Translations under genes and position numbers: made by a program
Source of the DNA: Candidatus Saccharimonadota bacterium
GTDB taxonomy: Bacteria; Patescibacteriota; Microgenomatia; UBA1406; GWC2-37-13
Assembly (NCBI GenBank): GCA_016432445.1
Contig: CP066689.1
Span: forward strand, 690,001 to 722,000
Direction of reading: 5' to 3'
Length of the DNA: 32,000 bases
The notes under the pieces: model-generated
Databases searched by the model: none
The model's input: the letters and a program-made list of their open reading frames with translations, nothing else
What the model was told of the DNA's origin: nothing
Shown: positions 2,552-30,604 of the stretch, in pieces
How positions within the stretch are numbered: position 1 is the first letter of the stretch
Layout of the letters: every line of letters starts with the position of its first letter

Positions 2552-4636
2552 CTATGGCGTTTCTAACTCTTTTTTAGCTTCTTCGTACTGAGGATTAACC
2601 TTTTTTAAGAGGAATTCAAAAATCTTTTTAGCTTCTTCATTTTGGCCGTATTTTTTAAAAAGTTGGCCCTTGAGAAAATACGCATCTTCAAAATTAGGCT
2701 TCAAGTTTATCGCTTCCTCAATTTCTTTCAAAGATTTTTTTTGATAATCATTATTTTTATCTTTAGAATCATCATCAAGTAAAGTGTAATACAAAGCAAT
2801 AGAATAAGGTATCTTTGGATCAGTTGGAGACAGGCGCTTAGCCTGAACTAATGCTTCTATTCCCTTATTTAAATGGTTAGAGTCCACTGTACCTTGATAG
2901 AATAAATACTGATTTTTAGCTCTAGTTTTCCAATATGTAACATTATAAGGAGAAGATTTAATGGATTTTAGGTTATAATAATCAGATAATTTAACTAAAT
3001 TCTTGGCAGTTGCAGCATCTTTCTGGTAATGAGTCACGTAGGAAAGATTAGCTAGATTATAAGATAATTTATCTTCATAAACATGCTCATAATGTAAACC
3101 TAAAGACTGAGAAAGCAAGCTAGAAGCGGTTTTATAATCACCGACTTTATAATATGTCTCGCTTTTTGCATAAACTATATCAGCTATGTAGTATTTGATT
3201 AAAAATGAAAGTATTATAAGAAACACTAATGTAATTAGACCTAATGAAATCGTTTGCTTTTTGTCTTTCTTAAAATTTAGGTTAATAATAATTTTTTTAT
3301 TTCTAGGATAGTTTGTATATAATGCTATTATAATCGCTGGAATTATATAAAAAAATAAATTAATGGTAGTTGTTGAAAAACCTAAAGAATTAGTAATTAA
3401 AATTGAAATATAAGCGCAAAATAAAGAGAGAAAAAGAAGAGAATTATTTTTATCAGATAAAATTCTTTTAAAGAGAAGTAATAAAACTGAAAATATCATT
3501 ATTAAATAAGCTGATAAACCAATATAACCTGTTGTTGCAAAATAATTAAGAAACTCATTATGAGCCTTGTTGTAAAGAAAATCCCATTCAGAGGTTAGAT
3601 TATGCTCAACAGGACGTTTAAAATAGTAAGAATTAGCAAACGTTTCTACCCCAGTCCCAAATAATGGATAACTTTTTCCAATCTCTACTGCTCCTTTCCA
3701 GACAATTTTTCTTATATCAAATGAATCAGTTACAATACTCGTTGAGTATTTATTTTGCACAGAATTAATTGTAGTTTTTGATGAAAAAGAAAAATATTTG
3801 TCAATAGAAGGTTTTCCTGTTTTAAAAAACAAAATCAAAAAAATTAAACCTGTAATCATAATAACACTTTTCTTAATACCTACTCTAAAAGAAATAAATA
3901 TTATTAACGCTATGATTGTAGCCGCTATTGCTGATTGTGAGTGAGTAAAAAAAATAGTTATTAAATTAAGAATGAGATATGAAATGTAAAAAATTTTGTC
4001 TTTGATATTTTTTTTTATTTTTGCCTTATCCTTTTGAAGCAAAAAATATAAACCAATAAAAAAAAGCACTGAGAGATATGCACCAAGCCAGTTAGGCTGA
4101 CCTAAAGTGGAAAATAACCGTTCAGCCGGACGGAACTGATCCGTCCAACAGCTGTTGTTAAAATCTCCGGTAAAAGCTAGGCAAAATAAATCATAACCAA
4201 ATTTGCCAGGTAATCCCAAAATGATAACAAAGACAGAGGAAATTAAGGAAATTTTAAGTAATCTAAAAATGAAGCTTTTATCAAAAACATCAATAAAAAT
4301 ATAAAATAACACAAGATAACTTATTATTGAAAATAATCCGCCATTAAAACGGCCGTAATAACCAAAAAGAGAAGTATGGATATCGATCGAAAAGATAGTC
4401 GATAAAACTTGAGAGACTAAAAATAAAATAATAGGAATATAGAATACATTCTTTTTAAGAATTGCTTTTTTTGTCGTTATCTTATCTGTAAGCCAGATAA
4501 ATACTATAAGCAAAGTGATTAAATAAATAAACATCATCTTATTAAACTCAAAAAGTTCCGAAGTTTTCGAATAAACAATCAATGGAGTCGCAAAAAAAAG
4601 GATATAATATAAAAAGCGAATGATGTTTGTTAACAT
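2552..4636 (-). CDS. O-antigen ligase/polymerase-like (Wzy_C-type) polytopic membrane protein with C-terminal TPR repeats
   Basis: 694 aa. About 12 hydrophobic segments are followed by a soluble tail with TPR-like repeats (AYFLKGQLFKKYGQNEEAKKIFE...). This architecture is common in CPR genomes. Confidence 0.6.
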   Translation of the reverse strand: MLTNIIRFLYYILFFATPLIVYSKTSELFEFNKMMFIYLITLLIVFIWLTDKITTKKAILKKNVFYIPIILFLVSQVLSTIFSIDIHTSLFGYYGRFNGGLFSIISYLVLFYIFIDVFDKSFIFRLLKISLISSVFVIILGLPGKFGYDLFCLAFTGDFNNSCWTDQFRPAERLFSTLGQPNWLGAYLSVLFFIGLYFLLQKDKAKIKKNIKDKIFYISYLILNLITIFFTHSQSAIAATIIALIIFISFRVGIKKSVIMITGLIFLILFFKTGKPSIDKYFSFSSKTTINSVQNKYSTSIVTDSFDIRKIVWKGAVEIGKSYPLFGTGVETFANSYYFKRPVEHNLTSEWDFLYNKAHNEFLNYFATTGYIGLSAYLIMIFSVLLLLFKRILSDKNNSLLFLSLFCAYISILITNSLGFSTTTINLFFYIIPAIIIALYTNYPRNKKIIINLNFKKDKKQTISLGLITLVFLIILSFLIKYYIADIVYAKSETYYKVGDYKTASSLLSQSLGLHYEHVYEDKLSYNLANLSYVTHYQKDAATAKNLVKLSDYYNLKSIKSSPYNVTYWKTRAKNQYLFYQGTVDSNHLNKGIEALVQAKRLSPTDPKIPYSIALYYTLLDDDSKDKNNDYQKKSLKEIEEAINLKPNFEDAYFLKGQLFKKYGQNEEAKKIFEFLLKKVNPQYEEAKKELETP

Positions 4637-4637
4637 A

Positions 4638-4711
4638 GTTATGAGTTGTGGGTTGTGAGTTTTGGGTTTAACTCATAACTCAGAACCCATAACCCAGAAC
4701 TCTAAACTCTT
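4638..4711. repeat. phased heptamer hairpin spacer (GTTNTGR x5 then NCANAAC x5)
   Basis: Reads GTTATGA GTTGTGG GTTGTGA GTTTTGG GTTTAAC TCATAAC TCAGAAC CCATAAC CCAGAAC TCTAAAC in an unbroken 7-nt phase. It fills the whole divergent spacer between the start at 4636 (-) and the mreB ATG at 4712. Confidence 0.85.
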
Positions 4712-5773
4712 ATGCTTAATTTTATAGAAATTTTTAAAAAAATCCAAATTCCTTTTTTTTCCTCATTAAGTGTATATTTTGACTTAGGTACATCAAATAC
4801 GCGCATAGGTATTAAAGATAAAGGAATAGTTTTAAGAGAACCTACTTATCTTGGGTATAACACAAGAATAAAAGAGTATATTTTTTTTGGCAAAGAAGCC
4901 AAAACGATAATTGGTAAAACTCCAAACTTCATTCATATAATTCAACCTTTAGTTAACGGTATTCTTTCCGATTTTGACGCCCAGGTAGCTTTAATTGAGT
5001 ATTTTACAAAAAAATCGGTCTATCCTTATTTCTCTCAAACGCGATTTCTTAAACCTACGCTCAAAGCCTTCTCTGTAATTCCTTCTATTGCAACTGAGAT
5101 CGAGCAAAAAGCTGTTGAGGAAGCTCTGGAAAAAGCCGGATGTTCTTCTGTTTATTTAGTTGAAAAACCCTTAGCTGTAACAGCTGGATGCGGATTTGAT
5201 ATTTTTTCTCATCAGCCTCATTTTATTGTAGATCTGGGTGGAGGATTAATTGAACTAAGTATTGTTTCAGGTGGCGGCATAGTGATTCAAAAAACATTAA
5301 AAACCGCCGGCGAACATATGAATAAATTAATCGCTAATTACTCTTACCTTAAACATGGTATTATTCTTGGCGATAAAACCTGTGAAGATTTAAAAATTAG
5401 CTTGCTTCATTTTGAAGGTGAAGAAAAAACAATCATGGTCCGAGGAAAATCTTTAGAAACCGGTCTACCTAAATCAGTAAGAATGAAAACTGCTGACATC
5501 AAAGAAGCTTTACTTACTTCATTTAACTCAATTACTGACTCGATAAAAGAGCTCATTGAACTTTCCCCTCCAGAAATAGCTGATGAAGTATTCAAGAATG
5601 GTATCACTTTAACCGGAGGAATAGCTTCAGCTAATGGCCTTGACAATTTTTTTTCACAGGAACTAAAAATTCCAGTTGTGATTGCTGATCATTATATAGA
5701 TGCCACTCTAAACGGCCTTATTGCTATCGACAAAAACCAAGATCAGTTTTTTAAATTGTTTGGATATAAGTAA
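4712..5773 (+). CDS. mreB: rod shape-determining actin-like protein MreB
   Basis: 353 aa. Actin-fold phosphate and adenosine motifs DLGTSNTRIG, VDLGGGLIELSIV and LTGGIASANGL. Confidence 0.85.
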   Translation: MLNFIEIFKKIQIPFFSSLSVYFDLGTSNTRIGIKDKGIVLREPTYLGYNTRIKEYIFFGKEAKTIIGKTPNFIHIIQPLVNGILSDFDAQVALIEYFTKKSVYPYFSQTRFLKPTLKAFSVIPSIATEIEQKAVEEALEKAGCSSVYLVEKPLAVTAGCGFDIFSHQPHFIVDLGGGLIELSIVSGGGIVIQKTLKTAGEHMNKLIANYSYLKHGIILGDKTCEDLKISLLHFEGEEKTIMVRGKSLETGLPKSVRMKTADIKEALLTSFNSITDSIKELIELSPPEIADEVFKNGITLTGGIASANGLDNFFSQELKIPVVIADHYIDATLNGLIAIDKNQDQFFKLFGYK

Positions 5774-5859
5774 GTTATGAGTTAAGGGTTGCGGATTGAG
5801 AATAATGAGCCAATACAATAGAATACAGTTTTACGCTTGTATTTATAACTTAATTGGGG

Positions 5860-6031: not shown

Positions 6032-7548
6032 TTTTTTAAGAGTTTGATCCTGGCTCAGGATGAACGCTAGCGGTGTGCCTGAGATATGCAAGTCGAGCGT
6101 CCCCGCCGCAAGGCGGGGTAGTGGCGGACGGCTGAGTAATATATAGGAACCTGCCTTTTTCTGGAGGATAGCCCCGCGAAAGCGGGGGTAATACTTCATG
6201 GTCCAGATACCATCTGGTACCTGGTAAAGGACGTAACTGTCCGGAAAAAGATGGGCCTATATTCTATCAGGTAGTTGGTAGGGTAATGGCCTACCAAGCC
6301 TATGACGGATAGCTGGTTTGAGAGGACGACCAGCCAGAGGGGGACTGAGACACGGCCCCCACTCCTACGGGAGGCAGCAATCAGGAATAGTCGGCAATGG
6401 GCGAAAGCCTGACCGCGCGACACCGCGTGCGGGATGAAGGTCTAAACGATCGTAAACCGCTGTGGTAGGGGAAGAAGTAGGCCATTGGCCTATTGACGGT
6501 ACCCTACTAGAAAGGAGCCGCTAACTGCGTGCCAGAAGCGTCGGTAATACGTGGGCTTCAAGCGTTATCCGGTTTTACTGGGCGTAAAAGGTCGTGTAGG
6601 CGGTTTGATAAGTTATCTCTTAAATTTTCTCGCTCAACGAGAAGCTTGGAGATAATACTATCAAACTTGAGTTTTCTTAAGGGAGACTGGAACTGAGGGA
6701 GGAGTAGTGAAATGCGTTGATACCCTCGGGAACACCAGTGGCGAAGGCGAGTCTCTGGAAGGAAACTGACGCTGAGACACGAAAGCTAGGGGAGCGAAGC
6801 AGATTAGAGACCTGCGTAGTCCTAGCCCTAAACGAATGCCTGCTGGCTGCATGGTTTCCCGACTTTGTCGAGGATTTCGTGTGGCGAAGGTAACCCGTTA
6901 AGCAGGCCGCCTGGGGAGTACGACCGCAAGGTTAAAACTCAAAGGAATTGGCGGGGAGGCACACAACCAGTGGAACATGTGGTTCAATTCGATACGAACC
7001 GAAGAACCTCACCAGGGCTTGAAATCCAAGCGTCCTATCCCGAGGAAACTCGGGAAATTCGCAAGAAGGTTTGGACAGGTACTGCATGGCTGTCGTCAGT
7101 TCGTTCCGTGAGGAGTGCCCTTAAGTGGGACAACGAACGCAACCCCTATCTTGTGTTAAATTTGTCACAAGAGACTGCCCCGCCTATGGCGGGGAGGAAG
7201 GAGGGGCAGACGTCAAGTCAGCATGGTCCTTATGCCCTGGGCTACACACATGTTACAATGAATAAAACAACGGGCTTTGCAAACGCGCAAGTGTAAGCAA
7301 ATCCCTTAAATTTATTCTCAGTGGGGATTGAGGTCTGCAACTCGACCTCATGAACGCGGAATTGGTAGTAATCGCGGATCAGCTATGCCGCGGTGAATAC
7401 GTTCTTGCCTCTTGCACACACCGCCCGTCAAGCCAACAAAGTCGGTGGCATTTGAACCCCGCTCAGCGGGGGAGAATTTCATCGGCGATGAGGGTTAAGT
7501 CGTAACAAGGTATCCGTTCTGGAAGGAGCGGATGGATCACCTCCTTTC
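6032..7548 (+). rRNA. rrs: 16S ribosomal RNA (about 1.5 kb, no large insertion)
   Basis: AGAGTTTGATCCTGGCTCAG at 6039. ACTCCTACGGGAGGCAGCA is present. CACACCGCCCGTCA is present. AAGTCGTAACAAGGTATCC...GGATCACCTCCTTTCT ends near 7548. The ends are approximate to a few nt. Confidence 0.95.
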
Positions 7549-8932: not shown

Positions 8933-10144
8933 TTACCTTAATCTTCCAAAAACAATTTCTGGTAAATCATCAAATGCAACTATCCCCAGTACATGCCTGT
9001 TTTGATCTATAATAGGCACTGCATTTAATTTATATTTAAACATTTTTGCCAAGGCTATTTCTTTAGGTGTAGTTAGATGAATAACAATCGCATTTTGTGT
9101 CATAAATTTGTAGACGGGTGTATCTAAATTTTGAAGTATCATCTCATGAAGACTAAAAACTCCAACTAGTTTATCTTCTTTGTTTAACACATAAATATAA
9201 TTAAGGAATGAAAAATCAGCCGCTTCTTTTTTAATCTTTGATATAACTTCTTTGACAAGAGTATCAGGAGTTGCAGTTAAAAACTGTGTTGTCATTTTTT
9301 CACCAATTGGTGACTGTGACATTTTAAACAAATGCCTTAACTCTTTTTGTTTCCCAGTGTTAAGAAGGAAAAGAATCTCTTCCCTTTTTTTCTCTGATAA
9401 AGTTAGAAGTATATCTACGGCTTCATCAGGATCTATAATTGAAACAACATGAGCGGCTTTCTCTGGTGAAAACTGTTTAAAGATAGCGCTCTGGTAATTA
9501 ATATTTAAATTCTTGATAATATCAACTGCAAAATCTTCATCCAGCGATTTTAGGATTCTATCTGCATTGACAATATTAATTTTCTCAAGATAATCGGCTA
9601 AATCTTCCGGTCTTATTTTCTTAAGTTTATCTTGTTCTGTCTTTAAGATCACCATGCCTCGTGCAAGCTCAAGCGGCTGAATATCAGCCCATGATAAAAA
9701 TTTAGAGGTTATTTTTACTCCAAAATTGATCAAAATACGTGAAATCATATCTTCAATTCCCAGTCTCCTTAAAATGCCCAAGATACCAATGTCAGCGCCG
9801 GCAATATAATATCCTGGGCGATCGTTTATGGCAACGTCATTAACCCTAACAACTTTATTCCCTTCAATATCAATGATTTGTTGATCCAACAGATTTTTAT
9901 TAAGTAGCAGTTCCTGATTAGTGATATTTTGACTCTCAAACTGCTTACTGATAATTATCTGATGATTAATTGACTCAATAGTTGAAGAGGGAATATTCAG
10001 GTAGTTATTTTCTTTATCTTTCACTATGAGTTTGGTTATTTTTGGGGTATCAGAAACGAGAAAAGCAAGATCTTCAAGTTTTCCTACAAAAACACGGTCC
10101 TCTGTACATACTTGTTTTCCTTTCAGCTCGGAAAAATAAAGCAT
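8933..10144 (-). CDS. soluble PRC-barrel + MgtE N-terminal domain + CBS-pair protein (no MgtE membrane domain)
   Basis: 403 aa. N-terminal PRC-barrel-like repeats are followed by an MgtE_N-like helical region (DLADYLEKI...DPDEAVDILLTL) and then two CBS motifs. There are no hydrophobic segments. It lies 6 nt upstream of the Nramp-like gene on the same strand. Confidence 0.7.
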   Translation of the reverse strand: MLYFSELKGKQVCTEDRVFVGKLEDLAFLVSDTPKITKLIVKDKENNYLNIPSSTIESINHQIIISKQFESQNITNQELLLNKNLLDQQIIDIEGNKVVRVNDVAINDRPGYYIAGADIGILGILRRLGIEDMISRILINFGVKITSKFLSWADIQPLELARGMVILKTEQDKLKKIRPEDLADYLEKINIVNADRILKSLDEDFAVDIIKNLNINYQSAIFKQFSPEKAAHVVSIIDPDEAVDILLTLSEKKREEILFLLNTGKQKELRHLFKMSQSPIGEKMTTQFLTATPDTLVKEVISKIKKEAADFSFLNYIYVLNKEDKLVGVFSLHEMILQNLDTPVYKFMTQNAIVIHLTTPKEIALAKMFKYKLNAVPIIDQNRHVLGIVAFDDLPEIVFGRLR

Positions 10145-10256: not shown

Positions 10257-10457
10257 GGGTGTGTGGCTCAGTGGTAGAGCGCGTTCCTGACCCGCCCGCC
10301 TTGACTTCGCGGTCAAGGGCAATTGGCTCAGTGGTAGAGCGTCGTCCTGATAAGACGAAGGTCGGAGGTTCGATCCCTCCATTGCCCACATTGGAACGTC
10401 AAGGCGAAGTCGGGCGCGGTAAGAACGAGGTCCCAGGTTCGATCCATGGCACACCCA
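10257..10457 (+). tRNA. interrupted tRNA gene (Val-GAC or Ile-GAU depending on junction) whose 129-nt intervening sequence contains a whole tRNA-Ile
   Basis: The 5' part at 10257-10291 reads GGGTGTG TG GCTCAGTGGTAGAGC G CGTTC CTGAC. The 3' part at 10421-10457 reads AA GAACG AGGTC CCAGG TTCGATC CATGG CACACCC A. Together they give a 72-nt cloverleaf with perfect acceptor and anticodon stems. The only flaw is one G:A mismatch in the T stem. Confidence 0.6.
10317..10388 (+). tRNA. tRNA-Ile (anticodon GAU)
   Basis: GGGCAAT TG GCTC AGTGGTA GAGC G TCGTC CTGATAA GACGA AGGTC GGAGG TTCGATC CCTCC ATTGCCC A. The cloverleaf is perfect. C4-G69 and A73 are present. CCA is not encoded. Confidence 0.9.
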
Positions 10458-10478: not shown

Positions 10479-10552
10479 GGACCCGTGGCTCAGTTGGTTA
10501 GAGCGCCTCGTTTACATCGAGGAGGTCATAGGTTCGAGTCCTATCGGGTCCA
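10479..10552 (+). tRNA. tRNA-Val (anticodon UAC)
   Basis: GGACCCG TG GCTC AGTTGGTTA GAGC G CCTCG TTTACAT CGAGG AGGTC ATAGG TTCGAGT CCTAT CGGGTCC A. The cloverleaf is perfect. Confidence 0.9.
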
Positions 10553-10618
10553 CTCTGGCTAGAGCGGTCCGACGTTACGTCGGACATGTTGGGGGTTCGA
10601 AACCTTCAGCGGCCACCA
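10553..10618 (+). pseudogene. 5'-truncated tRNA-like element (T arm, acceptor 3' strand and encoded CCA, but no acceptor 5' strand)
   Basis: Starts directly after tRNA-Val. Reads ...TGGCTAGAGC G GTCCGACGTTACGTCGGAC ATGTT GGGGG TTCGAAA CCTTC AGCGGCC A CCA. There is no GGCCGCT partner upstream. The D arm is about 8 nt too short. The anticodon arm is a perfect 19-nt palindrome. Confidence 0.5.
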
Positions 10619-16322: not shown

Positions 16323-16368
16323 ACCAATTCTCAATTTAAAATTTAGAATTTTAAATTAAAAATTAATT
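16323..16368. repeat. phased heptamer spacer (NNNAATT x6)
   Basis: ACCAATT CTCAATT TAAAATT TAGAATT TTAAATT AAAAATT, running up to the tsf ATG. Confidence 0.75.
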
Positions 16369-17395: not shown

Positions 17396-17500
17396 ATAAA
17401 TCCAAATGTCAAATTACAAATGTCAAATATTTTTAGAATTTAAGATTTTGGATTTGATTTGTCATTTGAAATTAGGATTTTGATTTTTCGGTTTTTAAAC
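17396..17500. repeat. phased heptamer hairpin spacer, CAAAT family
   Basis: TCCAAAT GTCAAAT TACAAAT GTCAAAT ... GGATTTG ATTTGTC ATTTGAA. Related copies are at 24826-24915 and 28351-28416. Confidence 0.8.
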
Positions 17501-17501
17501 T

Positions 17502-19158: not shown

Positions 19159-20865
19159 ATGAGATACTCTAAGTTGTTTGGTAAAACAGTTAAAACAGTT
19201 CCTCAAGATATCGCATTTTCATCTCATAAACTTCTTTATAAAGCTGGATTTATCCGCGAAAGTACTGCCGGACGCTATTATCTTTTGCCTTTAGGAATGA
19301 AAGTTCATCAAAAAATACAGCAAATTATTAAGGAAGAAATGGATAAATCAGGAGCACAGGAAATGATTGCTCCTATTCTTCACCCTATTGAACTTTGGAA
19401 AGAAACCAATAGAACTAACTCTGTGGGATTTGAGCTCATGAGTGTTAAAGACCGCAATGAAGCTGAGTTTGTCTTGGGCGGCACTGCCGAAGAGATGCTG
19501 GTTGACTTGGTACGAAAATTTCAGATAAGTTACCGTGATCTTCCCTTTCATCTTTACCAATTCTCTACAAAATTTAGAGATGAGTTTCGCGCAAGAGGCG
19601 GGCTGTTAAGAGCTCGTGAGTTTGTTATGAAAGACGGCTATTCTTTTCATGACTCAGAGGTAGATTTTAAAAAAGAGTATCAAAAAATGAAAGATGTTTA
19701 TAAAAATATTTTTGAGCGTTTAGGTCTTAAAACAGCTATAGTTGAGTCAGATAACGGCTACATCGGCGGAGAATACTGCCATGAATTTATTGTTGAAAGC
19801 CCGATAGGGGAGAGTAAATACTTAGTAACTGAAGACGGAAGTTATGCCGCCCATGAAGATGTGGCCAAATTCAAACGCGATGAAAAGAATTTGGACGAGT
19901 CCGAAAAAGATATGGAAGAAGTTGAGGCCGTACGGGGTAAAACTATGGAAGAGGGCGTAAAACTTCATGGAAAACCCCTTTGGCAACAAATTAAAGATGT
20001 TTTATTTGTTGACGAAAAAGGCAGATTTATACTGGCAATAATCCGGGGAGATTATGATGTTAATGAAGTTAAGTTAATGCATTTAATTAAAGCTTACCGT
20101 CTCCGTCACGCCACCGGGGAAGAAATCAAAGATAAAATTCATTCAGAGCCAGGTTTTATCTCACCGGTTGGCATTAAGGAAATTATTGATTCTTCCATTG
20201 AACTGGTTATTGCCGCTGACGAGTCGCTTTTGACTGTCAAGAATGCCTATGGAGGCGCCAACAAAAAAAATCGTGATCTTTTTAATATGAATATCAACAG
20301 AGACTATAAACCGGATATTATTGGAGATATTGCTTTAGCCAAAGCTGGTTACGCAACTGACGGCAGAAAGAAACTCATTGAAAAAAGGGGAATTGAAGTT
20401 GGCAACATTTTTCAGCTTGGATTCCATTATTCATCAAAAATGCATGATGCTTGTCTTACAGCAGATGATGGGTCAAAAAAGCCTTTCTATATGGGCTGTT
20501 ACGGTATCGGTTTAGGCCGGACATTAGCGACAGTCGTTGAGGTTTTTCACGATGAAAGAGGAATTATATGGCCAAAAAATACTTCACCTTACCAAATTCA
20601 TCTTATTGGTCTTGATCTTAAAGATGAAACAGTTAAAAAACGCGCCAATGAAGTCTACGAACTACTAACTACGAACCACAAACTCGATGTTTTATTTGAT
20701 GATCGTGAAGCTATCTCGGCTGGAACTAAATTTACCGACTGTGATTTAATTGGTATTCCAGTTCGTCTTGTTATATCCAAAAAAACCGGCGACAAAATTG
20801 AATATAAAGAGCGACAATCAAAAGAAAGTTCATTATTATTAGAAGAAGTATTATCTAAGATCTAA
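19159..20865 (+). CDS. proS: proline--tRNA ligase
   Basis: 568 aa. Class II motifs (FRDEFRARGGLLRAREFVMKD, GCYGIGLGR) and a typical ProRS N-terminus. Confidence 0.9.
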   Translation: MRYSKLFGKTVKTVPQDIAFSSHKLLYKAGFIRESTAGRYYLLPLGMKVHQKIQQIIKEEMDKSGAQEMIAPILHPIELWKETNRTNSVGFELMSVKDRNEAEFVLGGTAEEMLVDLVRKFQISYRDLPFHLYQFSTKFRDEFRARGGLLRAREFVMKDGYSFHDSEVDFKKEYQKMKDVYKNIFERLGLKTAIVESDNGYIGGEYCHEFIVESPIGESKYLVTEDGSYAAHEDVAKFKRDEKNLDESEKDMEEVEAVRGKTMEEGVKLHGKPLWQQIKDVLFVDEKGRFILAIIRGDYDVNEVKLMHLIKAYRLRHATGEEIKDKIHSEPGFISPVGIKEIIDSSIELVIAADESLLTVKNAYGGANKKNRDLFNMNINRDYKPDIIGDIALAKAGYATDGRKKLIEKRGIEVGNIFQLGFHYSSKMHDACLTADDGSKKPFYMGCYGIGLGRTLATVVEVFHDERGIIWPKNTSPYQIHLIGLDLKDETVKKRANEVYELLTTNHKLDVLFDDREAISAGTKFTDCDLIGIPVRLVISKKTGDKIEYKERQSKESSLLLEEVLSKI

Positions 20866-20887
20866 GATCAAATATCGAACATCTAAT

Positions 20888-21721: not shown

Positions 21722-21806
21722 TACAATAACTATTGTATCGTTTTGCGCTTGGCGCAAAACGCATGACGCATTACGCTTAACATTTTTGAAAGGGGGAATC
21801 AAAATT

Positions 21807-22405: not shown

Positions 22406-23465
22406 ATACAATAATGATATGTTCTACCATACCTATAGACCAAAAACTATAAGTGAACTTGATAACGGCCAAGTAAAGGAGAGAGTTACCGCTATACTCG
22501 AAAATAAGACCCTTCCGCACGCCTTTCTTTTCACTGGACAAAAAGGAACAGGCAAGACTTCAACTGCCCGCATTTTTGCCAAAGCGGTAAATTGCCTAAA
22601 AAATACATTTGCTTCCCACGGAAGTTCTGTTGAGCCTTGCAATAAATGCACAAATTGTCTGAGTATTGACTCATCATCTTCTCCTGATGTGGTTGAGCTT
22701 GATGCCGCATCAAATCGAGGGATAGATGAAATAAGATCTCTTATCAGAAACTCTATCTTTTCCCCTATGAATAACCGCTACAGAATTTTTATCATTGATG
22801 AAGCTCATATGATTACTCACGATGCTTTTAATGCTTTGCTTAAAACATTAGAAGAACCTCCTTCCTCGGTAATCTTTATTCTAGCTACTACTAATGAAGA
22901 AAAAGTACCTAAAACCATAAGTTCACGCTGTATTATAATTCCTTTTGGAAAAGCAAGAAAAGACGAGATTAAATCCATGCTCAAAAGAATCGCAGTCAAT
23001 GAAAAAATCACAGTTGATAATGACTTTTTCGATATCATTGCCGCCCATAGCGAAAAATCTTTTAGAGATGCCACTAAATTATTTCAGGAACTTATTATCC
23101 AAAACAGGCTAACTTCTGATAAAGCTAAGGAGTATTTAGGCATTCAATCAAAACAGGATTTAATTCAAATAATTCAGGCCAAACCACTAAAGGAAACCTT
23201 AATCTGGATAAATGAGTACAGTGATACCGGAGGAAACGTCAAAATCCTAATAGAGAATCTTCTTAATGACCTCAGAATGGCCTTGCTTATTAAAAGCGGT
23301 GCCGTAAACAACAGCAGTCAAAAAAATCTCTTATCAATAAACGATATTACACTTTTGATGAAACTTTTGAATGAAGCCTATCAAAATCTGAGATTCTCAC
23401 CGATTGACTCAATTCCTCTTGAGATTGCAGTTGTAGAGTTTTATAATAAAAGAAAAGATTCATGA
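22401..23465 (+). CDS. dnaX: DNA polymerase III subunit gamma/tau (short)
   Basis: 354 aa. Contains FLFTGQKGTGKTSTARIFAKAVNC, a Cys zinc module and IIDEAHMIT. Confidence 0.9.
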   Translation: MTYNNDMFYHTYRPKTISELDNGQVKERVTAILENKTLPHAFLFTGQKGTGKTSTARIFAKAVNCLKNTFASHGSSVEPCNKCTNCLSIDSSSSPDVVELDAASNRGIDEIRSLIRNSIFSPMNNRYRIFIIDEAHMITHDAFNALLKTLEEPPSSVIFILATTNEEKVPKTISSRCIIIPFGKARKDEIKSMLKRIAVNEKITVDNDFFDIIAAHSEKSFRDATKLFQELIIQNRLTSDKAKEYLGIQSKQDLIQIIQAKPLKETLIWINEYSDTGGNVKILIENLLNDLRMALLIKSGAVNNSSQKNLLSINDITLLMKLLNEAYQNLRFSPIDSIPLEIAVVEFYNKRKDS

Positions 23466-23537
23466 TTTACGATTCACGATTTATGAATTATTCATTCTTG
23501 AATCATGAATCTTGTATCGTGAATCATAATAATTACT
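23466..23537. repeat. phased heptamer hairpin spacer (GATTNAN / TGAATCN)
   Basis: GATTCAC GATTTAT GAATTAT TCATTCT TGAATCA TGAATCT TGTATCG TGAATCA TAATAAT. It fills the dnaX-ybaB spacer. Confidence 0.8.
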
Positions 23538-23801: not shown

Positions 23802-23886
23802 GGTCGTTATGGGTTATGAGTGATGGGTGATGAGTAATATTAAATGTTTGAACCCATAACCCACAACCCATCACCCAAAACTAATT
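23802..23886. repeat. phased heptamer hairpin spacer (TGNGTNA / ACCCANN)
   Basis: TGGGTTA TGAGTGA TGGGTGA TGAGTAA TATTAAA TGTTTGA ACCCATA ACCCACA ACCCATC ACCCAAA ACTAATT, followed by the prs ATG. Confidence 0.85.
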
Positions 23887-24825
23887 ATGTTAAAACTATT
23901 CTCAGGCACGGGTAATCCTGACTTAAGTCAGGAAGTAGCTCAGCTTCTTAAAATATCTTTATCTGCATCAGAGGTCGTACGATTTGAAAACTCAGAAGTC
24001 AGAGTCAGAATTGAGGAGGATGTCAAAAATGATATCTGTGCCGTAATTCAGCCAATTGCCAATCCTACAGATACTAATTTGATGGAGATGTTCTTATTTT
24101 GCGATGCTTTAAGAAGACAAGAAGCCCATAAAGTGATCGGTATCATACCTTATTTTGGTTATGCCCGTCAAGACATTCAACACAGAGAAGGGGAATGCGT
24201 TTCAATTAGCGTCATCATCAGATTTTTAGAATCCATTGGTTTTAATAAAGTGTATACTTTTGATCTTCATGATGAGGCTACCTCCGGTGTTTTTTCCATC
24301 CCTTTTAAAGACTTAACTTCTCTTAATGTTTTGGCTAATGACGTCAAAAAAACTTTGGGGAAAAGCTTCAACAGAGATTCTGTGGTAGTTGTTTCACCAG
24401 ATCAGGGAGGTATTGAAAGAACAAGAAATTTTGGCAGATTTTTGTATGGTGATGACTATTTCTCAGTCTCGGTAATTGAAAAAAAGAGAGACTTAGCCCA
24501 TATTCATCAAAGCGGAGCCTTAAACCTCTTCGGAGATGTTAAAGATAAGGTAGCCATTTTAGTAGATGATATTATCACTTCTGGTGGAACTTTAATTCAT
24601 GCCGCTAATCTTTGTAAAGAAAAAGGAGCTAAAAAAATATTTGCTGCTATTGTTCATCACGATTTATCAATAAAAGCTCCTCCAAAAATACAAGAATCAG
24701 CTATTGAAAAAGTTTTCACCACTAATACTGTAAAACTAAAACCTGAGTACAATTTTGAAAAGCTTCATGAAGTCTCCATTGCCTCGATTATTGCCGAAGA
24801 ACTAAAAACATTCAAGAATGTCTAA
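23887..24825 (+). CDS. prs: ribose-phosphate pyrophosphokinase
   Basis: 312 aa. Contains YFGYARQD and the PRPP-binding loop VDDIITSGGTL. Confidence 0.9.
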   Translation: MLKLFSGTGNPDLSQEVAQLLKISLSASEVVRFENSEVRVRIEEDVKNDICAVIQPIANPTDTNLMEMFLFCDALRRQEAHKVIGIIPYFGYARQDIQHREGECVSISVIIRFLESIGFNKVYTFDLHDEATSGVFSIPFKDLTSLNVLANDVKKTLGKSFNRDSVVVVSPDQGGIERTRNFGRFLYGDDYFSVSVIEKKRDLAHIHQSGALNLFGDVKDKVAILVDDIITSGGTLIHAANLCKEKGAKKIFAAIVHHDLSIKAPPKIQESAIEKVFTTNTVKLKPEYNFEKLHEVSIASIIAEELKTFKNV

Positions 24826-24915
24826 ATCCAAATTACAAATGTCAAATGTTTTTGTCATTTAGTTTTTGAACTTTGGATTTGATTTGAAATTTGAACTTTG
24901 ACATTTGAATTTAAA
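24826..24915. repeat. phased heptamer hairpin spacer, CAAAT family
   Basis: TCCAAAT TACAAAT GTCAAAT GTTTTTG TCATTTA ... TTTGAAA TTTGAAC TTTGACA TTTGAAT. It lies between the convergent genes prs and recR. Confidence 0.8.
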
Positions 24916-25536: not shown

Positions 25537-25556
25537 AATTAAACTGAAGCGAAAAT

Positions 25557-25636
25557 GTTTGTTTCGAGCAATCGCCAGGATTCCCTTTCAGGATGCGCCT
25601 GCCTGCCGGCAGGCAGGGCGGCGAGAAACAAATATT
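25557..25636. repeat. GC-rich palindromic intergenic element
   Basis: The arms TGTTTGTTTCGAGCAATCGCC and GGCGGCGAGAAACAAATA enclose the near-perfect palindrome GCCTGCCTGCCGGCAGGCAGGGC. Confidence 0.6.
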
Positions 25637-25668
25637 GAGCGAAATAAAAATAATTAATCGACTGATTT

Positions 25669-27339
25669 TTAAATTTGTATAACATCCACAACTATCAAAG
25701 GCTTACGTCCTTTTTCCTGATAAAAAAACTTCTCCAAGTACCCCTCAACATCTTTTTTTATAATCCCCAAATCAATAATGTGTTCTTTCCTCGGCTTTAA
25801 CACTTTTTCAACCAACCGCGCGGCTTTCTCAAATAACTCTTCCTCAGCCTTTTCAAAAACAAATCCTCTTGATACAATATTTGGTCGGGCAAGCAACCTT
25901 CCATTGCTATCAACCATAATTAAAGCCACCACAATTCCCTCTGAAGAAAGAGTTTTTCTATCTCTTAAAACCATATTCCCAACATCACCAACTCCATAAG
26001 CATCAACATATATGGTTTTTGTCTCGAGCTCATCTCCCTTATAGGCATTATTACGGGTAAACCAAACAGTCTCACCAATCTCAAGTGTAAAAACATTTTC
26101 TTTAGGGTATCCTAACTCTCCGACAAGTTTTTGATATTGAAGCTGATGTCTTAGTGTTCCGCCAATAGGAATAAAATATCTTGGTTTGGTAAACCTGATT
26201 AAAAATTTTAAATCATCCTGATTTCCATGACCTGATGCATGAAGTTCATCATGAATATCGGAATAAATGACTTCAGCTCCTTGCAAAGATAGCTCCTCTA
26301 TCACATTATAAACCTCATTTTCATTTCCCGGGATTGGGTCCGATGAGAAGATCACCTTGTCACCTGGTTTTATTTTTACATTTTTGTTTTTATTATTAGC
26401 CAGTTTTGATAAAGCTGACTCATACTGGCCCTGAGATCCAGCCACAATCAAACAAACCTTGTTGGGAGGCAGACGCCTAACGTCTTCTTCTTTGGCAGTA
26501 AGAGCATTAGGAATTGGAAGATAGCCAATCTCTGCAGAAAGTCTGGTGTTTTCCCTCATTGACCTTCCTAAAAATACAATTTTACGGTTGAATTTGATTG
26601 CAGCGTCAACGCATTGTCTAATTCTTGAGATATTAGAAGAAAAGGTAGTCATAATAAATTTTCCTTTTGTTTTTCTCATCTCATCCTCAAAAACTTGGCC
26701 GACAATAGCTTCTGACAAAGTTAGACCTTCGCGCTCTGAACCTAATGAATCAGAAAATAAACATAAAATACCTTCATTCCCTGCTTTTGTTATTCCATAA
26801 AAATCAGGCGGAGGTCCAAAAGGAGGAGTCAGATCCATCTTAAAATCAGTACCGTGATAAAGATTTCCAACTGGAGTTTTGATTACCACGTGCATTGTAT
26901 CTGGTATCGAGTGAGTTACAGGAAGAAAATTGAGTTTAAAATCACCAAACTGATACACCTCCCCATACTTAACTTCAGTGACGTTAACGGGTTGATTAAA
27001 TTCTTTAAATTTGTTTTCAATAAAAGCGGCAGTCAGTTTACTTGTATAAACCGGCGGCTTTCCTAACTCAAGATAATGAAAAGGCAAAGCCGAAATATGA
27101 TCTTCATGGCCGTGAGTTAAAACAACTGCCCGGATTTTATCAATCTTATCTTTAAGATAGGTAATATCTGGAATGACAAAATCAACTCCCAGTTCTTTTT
27201 CATGAGGAAAACCAATACCGCAGTCAATAATGAGTATGTCTTTTAAAACCTCGTTTTCATAGATCTCATACACATACATATTCTTGGTAACACCAACAAT
27301 ACCTCCCAAAGCCACAAACCTTACTTTATATTTATCCAT
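25669..27339 (-). CDS. rnj: ribonuclease J
   Basis: 556 aa. Metallo-beta-lactamase motif VLTHGHEDHISALP, a beta-CASP region (HASGHG) and a C-terminal domain. Confidence 0.9.
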   Translation of the reverse strand: MDKYKVRFVALGGIVGVTKNMYVYEIYENEVLKDILIIDCGIGFPHEKELGVDFVIPDITYLKDKIDKIRAVVLTHGHEDHISALPFHYLELGKPPVYTSKLTAAFIENKFKEFNQPVNVTEVKYGEVYQFGDFKLNFLPVTHSIPDTMHVVIKTPVGNLYHGTDFKMDLTPPFGPPPDFYGITKAGNEGILCLFSDSLGSEREGLTLSEAIVGQVFEDEMRKTKGKFIMTTFSSNISRIRQCVDAAIKFNRKIVFLGRSMRENTRLSAEIGYLPIPNALTAKEEDVRRLPPNKVCLIVAGSQGQYESALSKLANNKNKNVKIKPGDKVIFSSDPIPGNENEVYNVIEELSLQGAEVIYSDIHDELHASGHGNQDDLKFLIRFTKPRYFIPIGGTLRHQLQYQKLVGELGYPKENVFTLEIGETVWFTRNNAYKGDELETKTIYVDAYGVGDVGNMVLRDRKTLSSEGIVVALIMVDSNGRLLARPNIVSRGFVFEKAEEELFEKAARLVEKVLKPRKEHIIDLGIIKKDVEGYLEKFFYQEKGRKPLIVVDVIQI

Positions 27340-27581
27340 GTTTTAATTATATACCACACCTCTTTAATTTTCTCAGGCATTGCTTTCAAATGCTCAATTA
27401 AAGTAATTAAAGTGAGGATGAACTAGAAAAAGCATTCTTATTTTTATCGCACTTTTACAAAACGGGAAAGCTAATTCATCCAGCTAGGTTACATATCAAA
27501 ATTTTACGTATGTGCGCTTAATGGGTGAATAAAGTGTATGTGCGATCAGGATAGATAACTTCAAAAGAAAGGAAAAGAGAC

Positions 27582-27743
27582 ATGCCCGTATATGACGATA
27601 GGACAGTACCTACTCAACCGGCAGGTTGCACTTGCAAGGGTCTTGGCACTTGCCCATACTGCAGGTCAACAAGAATCCGGCCACTAGGTCAACGACCCAT
27701 CGGAGATAAGCCAACGCCACCTGGCCGGCGAATCGTCTGCTAA
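27582..27743 (+). CDS. small Cys-rich protein (53 aa), cassette 0
   Basis: Below the size cutoff of the track. SD GAAAGGAAAAGAG sits 2 nt before the ATG. Sequence MPVYDDRTVPTQPAGCTCKGLGTCPYCRSTRIRPLGQRPIGDKPTPPGRRIVC. Codon composition is G+C-rich, unlike the host genes. Confidence 0.55.
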   Translation: MPVYDDRTVPTQPAGCTCKGLGTCPYCRSTRIRPLGQRPIGDKPTPPGRRIVC

Positions 27744-27818
27744 AGTAACGCAAACCGCTGAGACTTGAGAGAAATCACCCACTCTTAAGTCTTTTGCGGC
27801 AAAAGGAAAGGATGCAAT

Positions 27819-27986
27819 ATGACACCAGTTCTAGCAACAACGCTAAACTATGCAGTTAACACATTCTACATCTTGGTAGCCATCATTGTTGCCGCTATCG
27901 CCCTTGCTTTCATCATTGTAGCAGGATACCTCTTTTGCGTAATCATCCTCCTGGATGAACTGGGTATACTGCGCTTTGGAGACTAG
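27819..27986 (+). CDS. small hydrophobic protein (55 aa, TM segment plus acidic tail), cassette 0
   Basis: SD AAAGGAAAGGA before the ATG. Sequence MTPVLATTLNYAVNTFYILVAIIVAAIALAFIIVAGYLFCVIILLDELGILRFGD. Confidence 0.55.
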   Translation: MTPVLATTLNYAVNTFYILVAIIVAAIALAFIIVAGYLFCVIILLDELGILRFGD

Positions 27987-27990
27987 ACTG

Positions 27991-28076
27991 TACTTTCCCG
28001 TACATACGGCGGATTTGGTGAGATTGGTCCAACGTGACCCATGCTCTGCATGTAAAAAATCTTAACCAAATCCGCC
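27991..28076 (+). other. conserved three-way-junction element E1 (end of cassette 0)
   Basis: ACTTTCCCG lead-in. The 18-bp closing stem pairs GGCGGATTTGGTGAGATT with AATCTTAACCAAATCCGCC. Inner hairpins are GGTC-CAACGT-GACC and CATGC-TCT-GCATG. Homologous to E2 and E3. Confidence 0.65.
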
Positions 28077-28350
28077 GCCTCAATTCTCTCACATAACTAA
28101 TTTATTCATTAAAAGATATTTTGATCTACTATGAGCTATTGATTTTAAAAATTTAAAAGATTAATATCAGCACAATATGGAGAGGTTATCTTCAAAAAGG
28201 GTCTTTTTTGCATCCTTGGCTAGAGAGTCTCTCCTTTTTTTGTGCCTTTAATTATGCTCTAAAAGCATAGAGCCTAAACTAAAAGGCGCACTTTAATAAA
28301 AAGGGAAAGTCAAATCGCCCGCCCAAAAATAACAGGGGAAAAGAGAAAAT

Positions 28351-28416
28351 AAATCCAAATGTCAAAATTCAAATTTCAAAATTTTATTTGACATTTGTCA
28401 TTTGAACTTTGGATTT
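28351..28416. repeat. phased heptamer hairpin spacer, CAAAT family
   Basis: TCCAAAT GTCAAAA TTCAAAT TTCAAAA TTTTATT TGACATT TGTCATT TGAACTT TGGATTT. Confidence 0.8.
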
Positions 28417-28428
28417 CGTTTGTTTTCT

Positions 28429-28531
28429 TCTTGTCCCTGTTATCGGATAACTTAAGAAAAAGATACCGGATGTATCTTTAACTACCCCTAAAGTAGTTTG
28501 CAAGTTATGGGATGGACGATAAAGGGGACTT
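28429..28531 (+). promoter_or_regulatory. structured 5' leader of cassette A (conserved with cassette B)
   Basis: GTCCCTGTTATCG (28433-28445) pairs with CGATAAAGGGGAC (28517-28529). ATAACTT pairs with AAGTTAT. Two inner hairpins are AGATA...TATCT and AACTAC...GTAGTT. The leader ends 25 nt before the ATG. Confidence 0.5.
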
Positions 28532-28555
28532 GATGACCGGGTATGAGGAGGCCAT

Positions 28556-28897
28556 ATGAACTTAATAAGAGCAATTGTAGTCATTGTTGGCTACTACTTG
28601 CTGTCACTGGCAATAGTCAACTGGTTTGGCAATAGCGCTTGGTTGTTGTTCGTCGTACCCGCCGCAGCCTTAGTTGCTGTCTACTGGGTAGCAACGCAAA
28701 AGCGCGTCTTGAGTACATCTCAGGTAGTGCTTTATGCTATTGGCGCGTGGGTTGTGTCTGCAATAGTAAACGCAATGCTTCCTGAACAGTCCAACGTCTG
28801 GATGCTAATCGTGGCTGTCGCGGTCGCATTAGTTTACGAACTTTCCATCCGACAAGAGACATCCTCACCACGATCCACTGGATGGCAAACACGCTAG
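28556..28897 (+). CDS. 4-TM small membrane protein (113 aa), cassette A; paralog of 30047-30370
   Basis: ORF track. SD GAGGAGG. VIVGYYLLSLAIVNWFGNSAWLLF...ALVYELSIRQ aligns with VAIGYYLVSVGIVYLLNSNAWWLL...AFVYEKSVIR. Confidence 0.7.
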   Translation: MNLIRAIVVIVGYYLLSLAIVNWFGNSAWLLFVVPAAALVAVYWVATQKRVLSTSQVVLYAIGAWVVSAIVNAMLPEQSNVWMLIVAVAVALVYELSIRQETSSPRSTGWQTR

Positions 28898-28962
28898 TAG
28901 AAACAGAACGTTAGGATTACACCCCTCCTTACGAACTGTAATTCAGCCATGAAAGGAACAAA

Positions 28963-29097
28963 ATGAGCGCGGAACCAATCTTCGAAGCCTTCTTTTGGTG
29001 GATTGGAGGTTTCATCATCACATTCTTCGGAGCCGCCGCGATAGGCGCAACCACCTGGTTCATTCGGCTACTTCGCCATTTAAAGGAGGTTGTGTAA
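28963..29097 (+). CDS. small hydrophobic protein (44 aa), cassette A
   Basis: SD GAAAGGAAC. Sequence MSAEPIFEAFFWWIGGFIITFFGAAAIGATTWFIRLLRHLKEVV. Confidence 0.5.
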   Translation: MSAEPIFEAFFWWIGGFIITFFGAAAIGATTWFIRLLRHLKEVV

Positions 29098-29158
29098 CTT
29101 GAGATCGTAACCCCCCGTGCGAAGTTTACCTCGATGAAGACAGAAAGGAGAAGCATAA

Positions 29159-29335
29159 ATGCCTGTTTTATTTGTTGACATCCCTGACGACAAGGTTGCA
29201 GAATTTGTTAGACGCTACATGGAAGCTTTGCATAACAAACACGGCGTTCATTTCACAGCCACAATGACTAATGTCGCCAACGCCCCTCTTTTCCCAGATC
29301 GTTTACCAGCAGACAAGGCCGCCACGATTGTCTAA
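29159..29335 (+). CDS. small soluble protein (58 aa), cassette A
   Basis: SD GAAAGGAGAAGC. Sequence MPVLFVDIPDDKVAEFVRRYMEALHNKHGVHFTATMTNVANAPLFPDRLPADKAATIV. Confidence 0.5.
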   Translation: MPVLFVDIPDDKVAEFVRRYMEALHNKHGVHFTATMTNVANAPLFPDRLPADKAATIV

Positions 29336-29347
29336 ACGACTACTCCA

Positions 29348-29439
29348 GACTTTCCCGCGCTTGCGTCGGGTTTTATTAGGTTTGATTGCGCCCTGCAGTC
29401 AACATGCACCCGCATGTACAACCGAAATAAACCCGACGC
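29348..29439 (+). other. conserved three-way-junction element E2 (end of cassette A)
   Basis: ACTTTCCCGCGCTT lead-in. The closing stem pairs GCGTCGGGTTTTATT with AAATAAACCCGACGC. Inner hairpins are GATTGC-GCCCT-GCAGTC and CATGC-ACCC-GCATG. Confidence 0.65.
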
Positions 29440-29463
29440 TTCCACTTCCTCTAAAATAATAAC

Positions 29464-29472
29464 TGCTATAAT
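29464..29472 (+). promoter_or_regulatory. extended -10 element TGCTATAAT, 7 nt before the ATG (possible leaderless transcript)
   Basis: TGCTATAAT-TTAGGTC-ATG(29480). There is no SD. Confidence 0.35.
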
Positions 29473-29479
29473 TTAGGTC

Positions 29480-30016: not shown

Positions 30017-30046
30017 GATGGAATTTCAGTGAATAAGGAGGACAAC

Positions 30047-30594: not shown

Positions 30595-30604
30595 GAGGAA
30601 CGAA

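Follow-up and report, generated by a model that had tools for sequence, protein, structure and literature searches.

Tandem arrays of seven-nucleotide units between genes are a described class of bacterial repeat. In Xanthomonas, intergenic (GGGANTN)n arrays consist of 7-nt tandem units with a conserved core and variable positions, mostly in sets of four (Rehm et al. 2015, PMC4692102). Each genome holds 70-75 convergent array pairs on opposite strands, which are able to form a stem-loop or cruciform. Related species share the junction at which an array lies, and the length and sequence of the array differ between them (PMC4692102). TAACTGA repeats form intergenic arrays of 2-6 units, often within a few nucleotides of a start codon, in Beggiatoaceae, cyanobacteria and Bacteroidetes (MacGregor 2015, PMC4679880). 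Their presence in scattered phyla suggests transfer, they also occur in "split" sets with related 7-mers, and cold-shock proteins have been discussed as heptamer binders; the sets are almost all direct (1 inverted in 170), the single heptamer being oriented to the downstream gene (PMC4679880). The cyanobacterial short tandemly repeated repetitive (STRR) sequences (Mazel et al. 1990) and the excess of heptanucleotide long simple sequence repeats (SSRs; Mrazek et al. 2007) are cited in PMC4692102 and PMC4679880 for several intergenic heptanucleotide families per genome, a preference for 7 nt and a proposed origin by polymerase slippage. The open questions of why long SSRs favour 7 nt and of what function the arrays have date back to the STRR work of 1990. 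The subject of this report is a set of heptad arrays in a 32,000-nt stretch of DNA (the window, meaning the whole stretch analysed) from a bacterium of the candidate phyla radiation (CPR; Roizmanbacteria) with a streamlined genome of ~1.1 Mb.

Heptad arrays are present in 11 of the 21 spacers of at least 39 nt in the window. Lag-7 identity was calculated for each spacer and tested against 2000 shuffles; it is 0.49-0.75 in the 11 array spacers (p≤0.0005 for each), and the other ten, 57-201 nt long, show no lag-7 signal in this test. The arrays are mainly intergenic, as are heptanucleotide long SSRs and STRR sequences: at least 20 of 28 lag-7 matches are reached at 122 of 6767 positions in non-coding DNA, compared with 4 of 25199 in coding DNA. 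A sliding scan for at least 22 of 35 matches found 273 at lag 7, versus 0-15 at lags 5, 6 and 8-11. Tandem Repeats Finder reports period 7 with 2.9-5.4 copies at every site, together with 14-nt super-periods of 88-94% matches, and the arrays have at least three to four head-to-tail copies, as STRR-type tandems do. They add up to 818 nt and account for 2.6% of the window and for 12% of its non-coding DNA. A preliminary description of the window had reported one array at 4638 and eight others; all nine are significant by autocorrelation of the window spacers (p≤0.0005). It had also taken the pattern to be genome-wide, a claim that does not survive the ten spacers without arrays and the flanks in the same genome (L016 and L019, about 18 kb), in which no heptad arrays were found. 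The flanks therefore make the pattern regional. Six places were retrieved in independent Logan contigs from as many sequencing runs, and across the arrays these match the window with 100% identity, so the arrays are not an assembly artefact.

The array at 4637-4711 is the entire 75-nt gap between two divergent ATGs, those of a Wzy_C/TPR membrane protein (Wzy-like; 2552-4636, minus strand) and of MreB (4712-5773). It reads AGTTATG AGTTGTG GGTTGTG AGTTTTG GGTTTAA / CTCATAA CTCAGAA CCCATAA CCCAGAA CTCTAAA CTCTT, then ATG. The pattern is (R)GTTNTG five times, followed by YCANAAC five to six times, with arms at 4637-4668 and 4670-4701 and then AACTCTAAACTCTT up to the mreB ATG. The heptamers and the exact fill of the divergent spacer are as first described; the unbroken 7-nt register across both arms that was also pointed out adds nothing beyond the periodicity. 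Lag-7 identity is 0.72 (p=0.0005), versus 0.17-0.35 at other lags and 0.26±0.05 in the shuffles. Between the arms, 26 of 32 positions are complementary, and mismatches occur at heptad phases 0 and 4 only. The predicted RNA hairpin has an energy of -37.5 kcal/mol and a z-score of -6.7, z-scores here and below being those of the RNA folding energy against dinucleotide shuffles.

Seven to eight of the 11 arrays have this architecture, a heptamer array followed closely by its reverse complement, which folds into a long hairpin; inverted pairs of like-unit arrays are also the arrangement of Xanthomonas. The remainder are direct or weakly palindromic, and the preliminary statement that arrays are followed by their reverse complements fails at 20854, which is direct only, and at 16323, where the palindrome is weak. 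Each unit has a constant core of 4-5 nt and 2-3 free positions, again as in Xanthomonas. Opposed arrays consequently pair at the cores and mismatch with a period of 7, and the mismatches between arms are confined to one to three fixed heptad phases. This agrees with the earlier proposal of a hairpin whose mismatches recur every 7 nt because units vary at fixed positions.

Six unit themes were recognized: AACYCAN, NNCAAAT, GATCNAA, GATTYAY, AATTNNN and ACGCNNN. Three of them recur within the 32 kb in two to three copies each, so that the arrays do not each have a theme of their own, as had been supposed. The NNCAAAT theme is found at 17396, 24826 and 28351, the GATCNAA theme at 20854 and 31185, and the AACYCAN/GTTNTGR theme at 4638, 5774 and 23802. 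A 14-mer, GAACCCATAACCCA, is common to the 23802 and 4638 arrays. For the three CAAAT arrays, AAATCCAAAT was considered as a shared 6-nt irregularity that would prove common descent, and was rejected as it is an in-register TCCAAAT unit; their homology rests on a composite motif and on BLAST matches, described below.

Comparison with related genomes, which the preliminary description had proposed, was made with four close relatives (L012-L015; prs 68-74% identical). Identity to the nearest species representatives in GTDB is 56-60%. The four relatives keep the gene order rpsB, tsf, frr, rseP ... dnaX, ybaB, prs, recR, rnj, and their spacers at these junctions are 0-30 nt. At rpsB-tsf the relatives have 4 nt or an overlap (4 nt in L012) and the window has 48 nt; at frr-rseP the values are 4 nt (L012) or 2 nt (L014) and 106 nt; at dnaX-ybaB, 17 nt and 72 nt; and at ybaB-prs, 4-18 nt and 85 nt. 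The convergent genes prs and recR overlap or abut in the relatives and are 90 nt apart in the window. Because the codons on both sides are conserved, the extra DNA is the array itself, lying exactly between stop and start, and this precise placement is why the arrays fill their spacers exactly. Judged by alignment of these junctions, the arrays are lineage-specific insertions into spacers that are short in relatives, which themselves carry just a few short direct four-unit arrays. The arms of the arrays are inverted repeats, like the termini of MITEs (miniature inverted-repeat transposable elements). Target-site duplications, the other hallmark of MITEs, were not found flanking the arrays at any junction compared with the relatives. 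The idea that the heptads are 7-bp target-site-duplication footprints of repeated insertion and excision was dropped, as it is without any support. A streamlined genome, relatives with the same operon and spacers of 0-4 nt, unambiguous recent insertions and several coexisting families together make this region a clean natural experiment.

The window arrays resemble the G-rich repeats of Xanthomonas and Nostoc, (GGGANTN)n and GGGGA(T/C)T, in their tandem core-plus-variable units and inverted pairs. They differ in having AT-rich units that are unable to form G-quadruplexes (short GGG runs occur in the 4638 and 23802 arrays alone), in comprising at least six unit families instead of one, and in filling whole spacers of a ~1.1-Mb CPR genome, into which they are demonstrably inserted relative to close relatives. 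The closest match to TAACTGA in the window, TAACTCATAACTCA, is one position off in each unit, and in contrast to the TAACTGA sets the window arrays are mostly palindromic and of several families. STRR1-3 have the units CCCCAGT, TTGGTCA and CAACAGT. The window arrays are of the same kind as these, but their unit sequences are different, their host is a CPR bacterium and not a cyanobacterium, and palindromic pairing dominates. The REP elements of Proteobacteria (repetitive extragenic palindromes), with the bacterial interspersed mosaic elements and REP doublets forming hairpins (REPINs) built from them (e.g. PMC3116915), are similarly short imperfect extragenic palindromes between operon genes and at 3' ends. 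They likewise make up several percent of intergenic DNA, show family similarity with unrelated flanks, and have plausible roles as stabilisers or terminators at mRNA 3' ends. REPs, however, lack tandem 7-nt units, and they have a conserved full-length sequence and a linked REP-associated tyrosine transposase (RAYT); outside the CAAAT family no such sequence was found for the window arrays, and no RAYT was found among the genes of the window and of the L016 and L019 flanks.

These precedents bear on the suggestion, made in the preliminary description, that the arrays are an undescribed, genome-wide heptad-spacer design in which each spacer is purpose-built with its own theme. Eleven arrays in 32 kb, several of which fill the spacer exactly, are what such a design would produce. 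Half of the spacers and the flanks lack arrays, the themes are common to several loci and to other phyla, relatives run the same operon with spacers of 0-30 nt, and the class is already in the literature as the Xanthomonas (PMC4692102), TAACTGA (PMC4679880) and STRR repeats. A design of this kind is very improbable. A literature search found no paper linking such arrays to CPR bacteria or Patescibacteria; dense heptad arrays in Patescibacteria are new, and the class itself is described. Two further points are new: the CAAAT arrays belong to a composite of ~110 nt present in at least 120 contigs, including Thermodesulfobacteriota, and its variable positions do not covary between the arms.

The reading favoured here, with somewhat better than even confidence, is that the spacers hold heptanucleotide SSR arrays, mostly in the form of imperfect extragenic palindromes, which are prone to slippage, have spread between junctions and, if they function, do so as generic RNA hairpins. 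Such arrays would grow, shrink and homogenise by replication slippage in steps of 7 and 14 nt, and the inverted half could arise from strand or template switching. Some copy process would carry families to new junctions. If stop-to-start gaps alone tolerate arrays, the arrays would appear to fill spacers exactly, as they do. Transcripts of the arrays are predicted to form long AU-rich hairpins, putative REP-like elements of a generic kind that would act in 3'-end formation, termination, insulation or stability and would not be sequence-specific regulators. This role would be most plausible for the CAAAT family, since its 3' arm is U-rich in both directions. A position at 3' ends is supported by the one window array that lies at a convergent junction, and by the fact that canonical terminators were not called at these gene ends.

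Scans for known signals bear on what the hairpins might be. In the window, no array was called as a canonical intrinsic terminator, and terminator-like sites are at the number expected from shuffles. A U-rich 3' arm or tail was seen in the CAAAT family only, and the arrays do not have the short GC stem with a U-tract of a terminator. The earlier statements that arrays occur at divergent, convergent and co-directional junctions and are not simply terminators are borne out. A promoter scan of the window likewise gave counts at shuffle expectation and called no array. The TTGACA formed in ATTTGAC units was considered as an outward-facing -35 box and rejected, as it has no matching -10 and such arrays also lie at the convergent junction. 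Rfam has no match on any array in the window or in 20 related loci, the only hits being to rRNA and tRNA. A practical consequence is that short-read assemblies break at such arrays, and that predictions of promoters, terminators and small RNAs in metagenome-assembled genomes (MAGs) of CPR bacteria are misled by them.

The CAAAT arrays extend well beyond this genome, into other Patescibacteria and into Thermodesulfobacteriota. A scan of metagenomes with AAATCCAAATNNCAAATNNCAAAT matched at least 120 contigs with GC contents of 0.26-0.63; this and the following figures are among the matches listed. The complementary end TTTGGATTT lies within 160 nt in 68 of 130 matches, and there are ~30 full composites of ~110 nt, in each of which 3-4 NNCAAAT units and CAAATCAAATCCAAAGTTCAAAA lead into a loop, after which the first part is mirrored. 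Alignment A1 holds 28 full-length copies, with folding energies between -20 and -39 kcal/mol throughout. The composite is 84-95% identical between unrelated contigs, a conserved palindrome of the REP/REPIN type that was seen for the CAAAT composite alone, and its flanks do not align, so the copies are dispersed. All three window CAAAT arrays (17396, 24826 and 28351) are members of this family, and BLAST gives 95% identity over 44 nt between the 24826 array and the copies in L077, L147 and L057. L057 and L147 belong to the Thermodesulfobacteriota lineage (L057 DnaB is 93% identical to that of a named MAG), and L057 has three CAAAT copies in 3.4 kb at successive junctions. Among other contigs, L101 (Patescibacteria) has 8 arrays in 12.5 kb, and in L090 (Curtissbacteria-like) 7.9 kb hold 9 arrays with a variety of themes. 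Lag-7 segments number 212 in the 738 kb of loci retrieved, versus 5-40 at other lags. Because the composite is common to Thermodesulfobacteriota, transfer and convergence would become testable alternatives. Identity of a spacer between L090 and L142/L143 was rejected as evidence: these contigs are 96.5-99.9% identical with the divergence clustered in one gene, and this recombination mosaic makes the identical spacer uninformative. In viral contigs the CAAAT signature has 8 matches and (AACYCAN)4 occurs in 75 stretches, those inspected being mostly direct and often perfect; a simple test of the (AACYCAN)4 matches for upstream partner units found no palindromic case. There is no evidence in the viral contigs examined for phages as carriers of the palindromes.

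Dispersal of this kind is what would be expected if the arrays were non-autonomous mobile elements, such as MITEs, REPINs or Elhai-type small dispersed repeats, copied by an enzyme encoded elsewhere, e.g. a RAYT or a transposase of the IS200/IS605 type that recognises hairpins. Each unit family would then be an element lineage, and the heptad periodicity would be a property of the element and not of local slippage. The preliminary description had argued that the arrays are not copies of one mobile element since their sequences differ; the three recurring themes and the dispersed CAAAT family remove the force of that argument. The composite crosses phyla together with its non-heptad junction CAAATCAAATCCAAAGTTCAAAA, L057 holds its three closely spaced copies, the insertions lie cleanly between conserved stop and start codons, the 28351 palindrome reaches beyond its heptads, and a 20-nt GC-rich palindrome is repeatedly nested in heptad arrays. 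Small dispersed repeats were reportedly described in 2008 from inside heptamer arrays of Nostoc. Against this, no target-site duplications are visible at the junctions, and unit number, arm length and loop content vary in every copy. Orthologous junctions keep the array in place as its theme drifts, which resembles in-place concerted evolution or repeated replacement. No transposase was found among the Pfam-scanned window open reading frames (ORFs), and the precomputed Pfam labels of the genes in the L016 and L019 flanks show just a serine recombinase. Arrays that are direct only (20854 and 5774) also exist. Mobile elements are the alternative to be taken most seriously, though on this evidence they are unlikely to be the explanation.

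The GC-rich palindrome, CCTGCCTGCCGGCAGGCAGG, lies at 25598-25617 in the window, within a larger inverted repeat TTTGTTTCG...CGAGAAACAAA at 25537-25668 that is located between recR and rnj; of the six Logan contigs retrieved, three stop at 25574, a short way upstream of the palindrome. As a 16-20-nt element it has 13 occurrences in about 1 Mb of unrelated loci, often nested in heptad arrays (L048, L104, L138, L145 and L147). It has the look of a tiny dispersed element, one that either targets heptamer arrays or moves together with them.

The drift at orthologous junctions was observed in Thermodesulfobacteriota. A heptad palindrome is present at yajC-rpsF in all four relatives compared within that lineage, and at dnaB-pgsA and pgsA-eno in most of them. 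The theme shifts from CAAAT to TGCAAAT to GCGGAAT over roughly 10% DnaB divergence. Orthologous elements of L147 and L144 differ by one 7-nt unit, an indel, and those of L057 and L144 by one compensatory change, C:G to T:A. The arrays of this lineage sit between the upstream stop codon and a conserved promoter and Shine-Dalgarno block, which is a 3'-end position. At dnaB-pgsA, a conserved, GC-richer insert of ~100 nt, GAGATTTGAACCGAGTTCAGAATGA..., separates the arms of the CAAAT palindrome (L147 3857-4084; L057 2381-2563, reverse complement); the insert is a nested element, or else the loop contains a structured RNA.

Pairing within the composite is no higher than chance permutation provides. 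RNAalifold on the 28 CAAAT elements gave an empty consensus, and a 35-pair structure was imposed as the consensus of the minimum-free-energy folds of the individual sequences. With this structure, 86.4% of the cells of A1 are paired, versus 86.1% when partners are shuffled among sequences; the covariation score is 0.066 versus 0.063 shuffled, and 160 of 500 shuffles reach the observed value. The core columns are invariant and the NN positions of the two arms vary independently. The complementarity therefore stems from the invariant CAAAT and ATTTG cores. There is no sign of selection for a fully paired stem, and the periodic mismatches are a geometric consequence of opposed, non-identical units. 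Conserved cores with variable positions that do not covary would likewise allow transfer to be tested against convergence, and they bear on the choice between a protein footprint and RNA structure.

Several of these results weigh against the slippage-prone SSR arrays favoured above. Their RNA-level role is one that we infer, families other than CAAAT have no U-tract, and the lack of terminator calls applies to every array. A terminator would have little purpose at the 4638 array, which fills a divergent spacer whose two promoters must be either within the array or beyond it. The Logan assemblies of this population (six runs) showed no change in copy number, so the arrays are not visibly hypermutable on that timescale. 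One heptad position takes all four bases while the core is unchanged in about 9 units, and the CAAAT core is invariant in copies from different phyla. These two observations point to a constraint on the core beyond uniform mutation and slippage. The main difficulty is that neutral slippage does not explain a core so strictly conserved from phylum to phylum beside NN positions that are free.

A constrained core would be accounted for if the arrays were landing pads for a protein that reads a core of ~5 nt every 7 nt on single-stranded RNA or DNA. Candidates are cold-shock-domain proteins, each of which covers about one heptamer, or a nucleoid-associated protein. In an organism largely without Shine-Dalgarno sequences, the putative effect would be on the initiation of translation in neighbouring genes or on the fate of their transcripts. 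The invariant core, the free and non-covarying NN positions and the position that takes all four bases are consistent with this, as is the location of most arrays, which end 0-22 nt before a start codon. The TAACTCA unit of the AACYCAN family shares six of seven positions with TAACTGA, whose repeats lie just upstream of start codons and for which translational regulation and binding of cold-shock proteins have been proposed (PMC4679880). Shine-Dalgarno sequences are nearly absent from the genes of the window, even though the 3' end of the 16S rRNA is canonical, CACCUCCUUUC. On the other side, at least six unrelated cores occur in 32 kb (AACYC, CAAAT, GATC, GATTC, AATT and ACGC), which would require several proteins or one without sequence specificity. 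The palindromes are identical on both strands and so have no orientation to a gene, arrays also lie at the convergent junction and directly after stop codons, and the available sequence shows no candidate gene in linkage with the arrays. A landing-pad function is accordingly doubtful. YbaB/EbfC binds GTnAC-type sites. Its gene is flanked by two arrays in the window, and it was considered as a binder and rejected because the arrays contain no such motif.

The cross-phylum distribution and the constrained core can also be joined in one proposal, to which we give only a small share of belief. It holds that the palindromes are a horizontally spreading cross-phylum class, not described as such, that a dedicated partner, and not slippage alone, lies behind the fixed core, its 7-nt spacing and the freedom of the NN positions, and that operon junctions of CPR genomes that once had zero length have been colonised. 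Such a partner might be an enzyme that mobilises the elements, or a protein that binds single strands with a 7-nt footprint. If this were true, translational coupling in the CPR host would have been broken and hairpin-bounded cistrons created.

The other ten arrays of the window are as follows. A direct array of four units on the plus strand at 5774-5801 (GTTATGA GTTAAGG GTTGCGG ATTGAGA) belongs to the family of the 4638 array, begins directly after the mreB stop codon and has a lag-7 identity of 0.50 (p=0.0005); it was absent from the preliminary list. The rpsB-tsf spacer holds six AATTNNN units at 16323-16368 (plus strand; lag-7 identity 0.66). Its fold is -5 kcal/mol (z -0.8), and the palindrome is weak because the AATT core is self-complementary. 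At frr-rseP the CAAAT-family palindrome spans 17396-17501, with a hairpin at about 17398-17480 followed by a U-rich tail (z -1.1), and it aligns with the metagenome family in A1. A direct GATCNAA-family array on the plus strand at 20849-20887 (TCTAAGA TCTAAGA TCAAATA TCGAACA TCTAATA) has no inverted half. It includes the proS stop codon and ends at the ATG of a ChrB_C-domain gene; its lag-7 identity is 0.75 and it forms no hairpin (z +0.9). Between that gene (upstream) and rpsU (downstream), an ACGCNNN array at 21733-21787 (plus strand; p≤0.0005), also missing from the preliminary list, has a short 11-bp hairpin at 21739-21761.

At dnaX-ybaB, the GATTYAY/GAATCRT palindrome at 23457-23537 has arms at 23457-23490, which contains the dnaX stop codon, and 23492-23525, and a predicted RNA hairpin of -26.7 kcal/mol (z -5.8). 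The AACCCAN/ATGRGTK palindrome at 23802-23886, between ybaB and prs, is of the 4638 family (z -2.2). The element at the convergent prs/recR junction, 24824-24915, consists of a CAAAT-family hairpin at 24824-24880 and a direct ATTTGNN tail at 24881-24915, and contains the composite motif CAAATCAAATCCAAAGTTCAAAA (z -1.7). The palindrome at 28329-28444 has CAAAT heptads at its apex (28351-28416; lag-7 identity 0.55) and non-heptadic outer arms, ATAACAGGGGAAAAGAGAAAAT / ...TTCTTCTTGTCCCTGTTAT; the RNA fold of the array is -20.1 kcal/mol (z -3.3) and the DNA fold of 28280-28490 is -35.6 kcal/mol (z -5.7). The GATCNAA-family palindrome at 31185-31290, with arms at 31185-31232 and 31234-31281, stops 9 nt short of the ATG of a 170-aa gene and folds into an RNA hairpin of -36.2 kcal/mol (z -5.6). 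Nine of the 11 arrays end 0-22 nt before an ATG; most are palindromic and hence without orientation.

The window otherwise contains housekeeping genes, three tRNA genes and a 16S rRNA gene at 6032-7547 without an adjacent 23S rRNA gene. The next gene after the 16S gene is an Nramp gene on the opposite strand, and tRNA-Ile(GAT) and tRNA-Val(TAC) lie 2.8 kb downstream at 10317-10389 and 10479-10553. Since no 23S gene follows, the rRNA operon is unlinked, as in many reduced genomes. Most start codons, e.g. those of 25669-27339 (minus strand), 14132 and 8933-10144 (minus strand), are without a Shine-Dalgarno sequence, and TATAAT, once TGGTATATAAT, is found 6-7 nt before the ATG of several genes. 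A TATAAT so near the ATG suggests that these genes may have leaderless mRNAs. The exceptions to the scarcity of Shine-Dalgarno sequences are rpsU (21807) and the ORF at 28556, with GGGGG or GAGGAGG upstream.

The region from rnj to the 170-aa gene, 27340-31184, has a higher GC content (0.39-0.44) and short ORFs only, and the 28351 and 31185 palindromes lie inside it. It includes a FeS_assembly_P gene at 29480-29785. In relatives this gene directly precedes the 170-aa gene, which indicates that the intervening ~1.5 kb (29786-31184) is an insertion. Two ORFs, at 28556-28897 and 30029-30370, encode 113-aa membrane proteins that seem to be paralogs. To the right of the window, at a distance of about 5-10 kb, L016 8083-13235 carries a serine recombinase (Resolvase/Recombinase/Zn_ribbon_recom) and, after it, small ORFs together with an HTH_3 regulator; these are all minus-strand genes. 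The region is probably an integrated phage or mobile element, and it is without heptad arrays.

Heptad-like sequence also occurs in one coding region and may occur in another. Within proS, a weak array at 20654-20697 reads CTACGAA CTACTAA CTACGAA CCACAAA; ProS is equal in length to its homologs in relatives, and the array is therefore no obvious insertion. The aroA product of L101 (EPSP synthase, minus strand) has a short low-complexity insert, KNLKLKIKNCNLKLKI, at residues ~320-340, which may be a heptad array that expanded in frame within the coding region.

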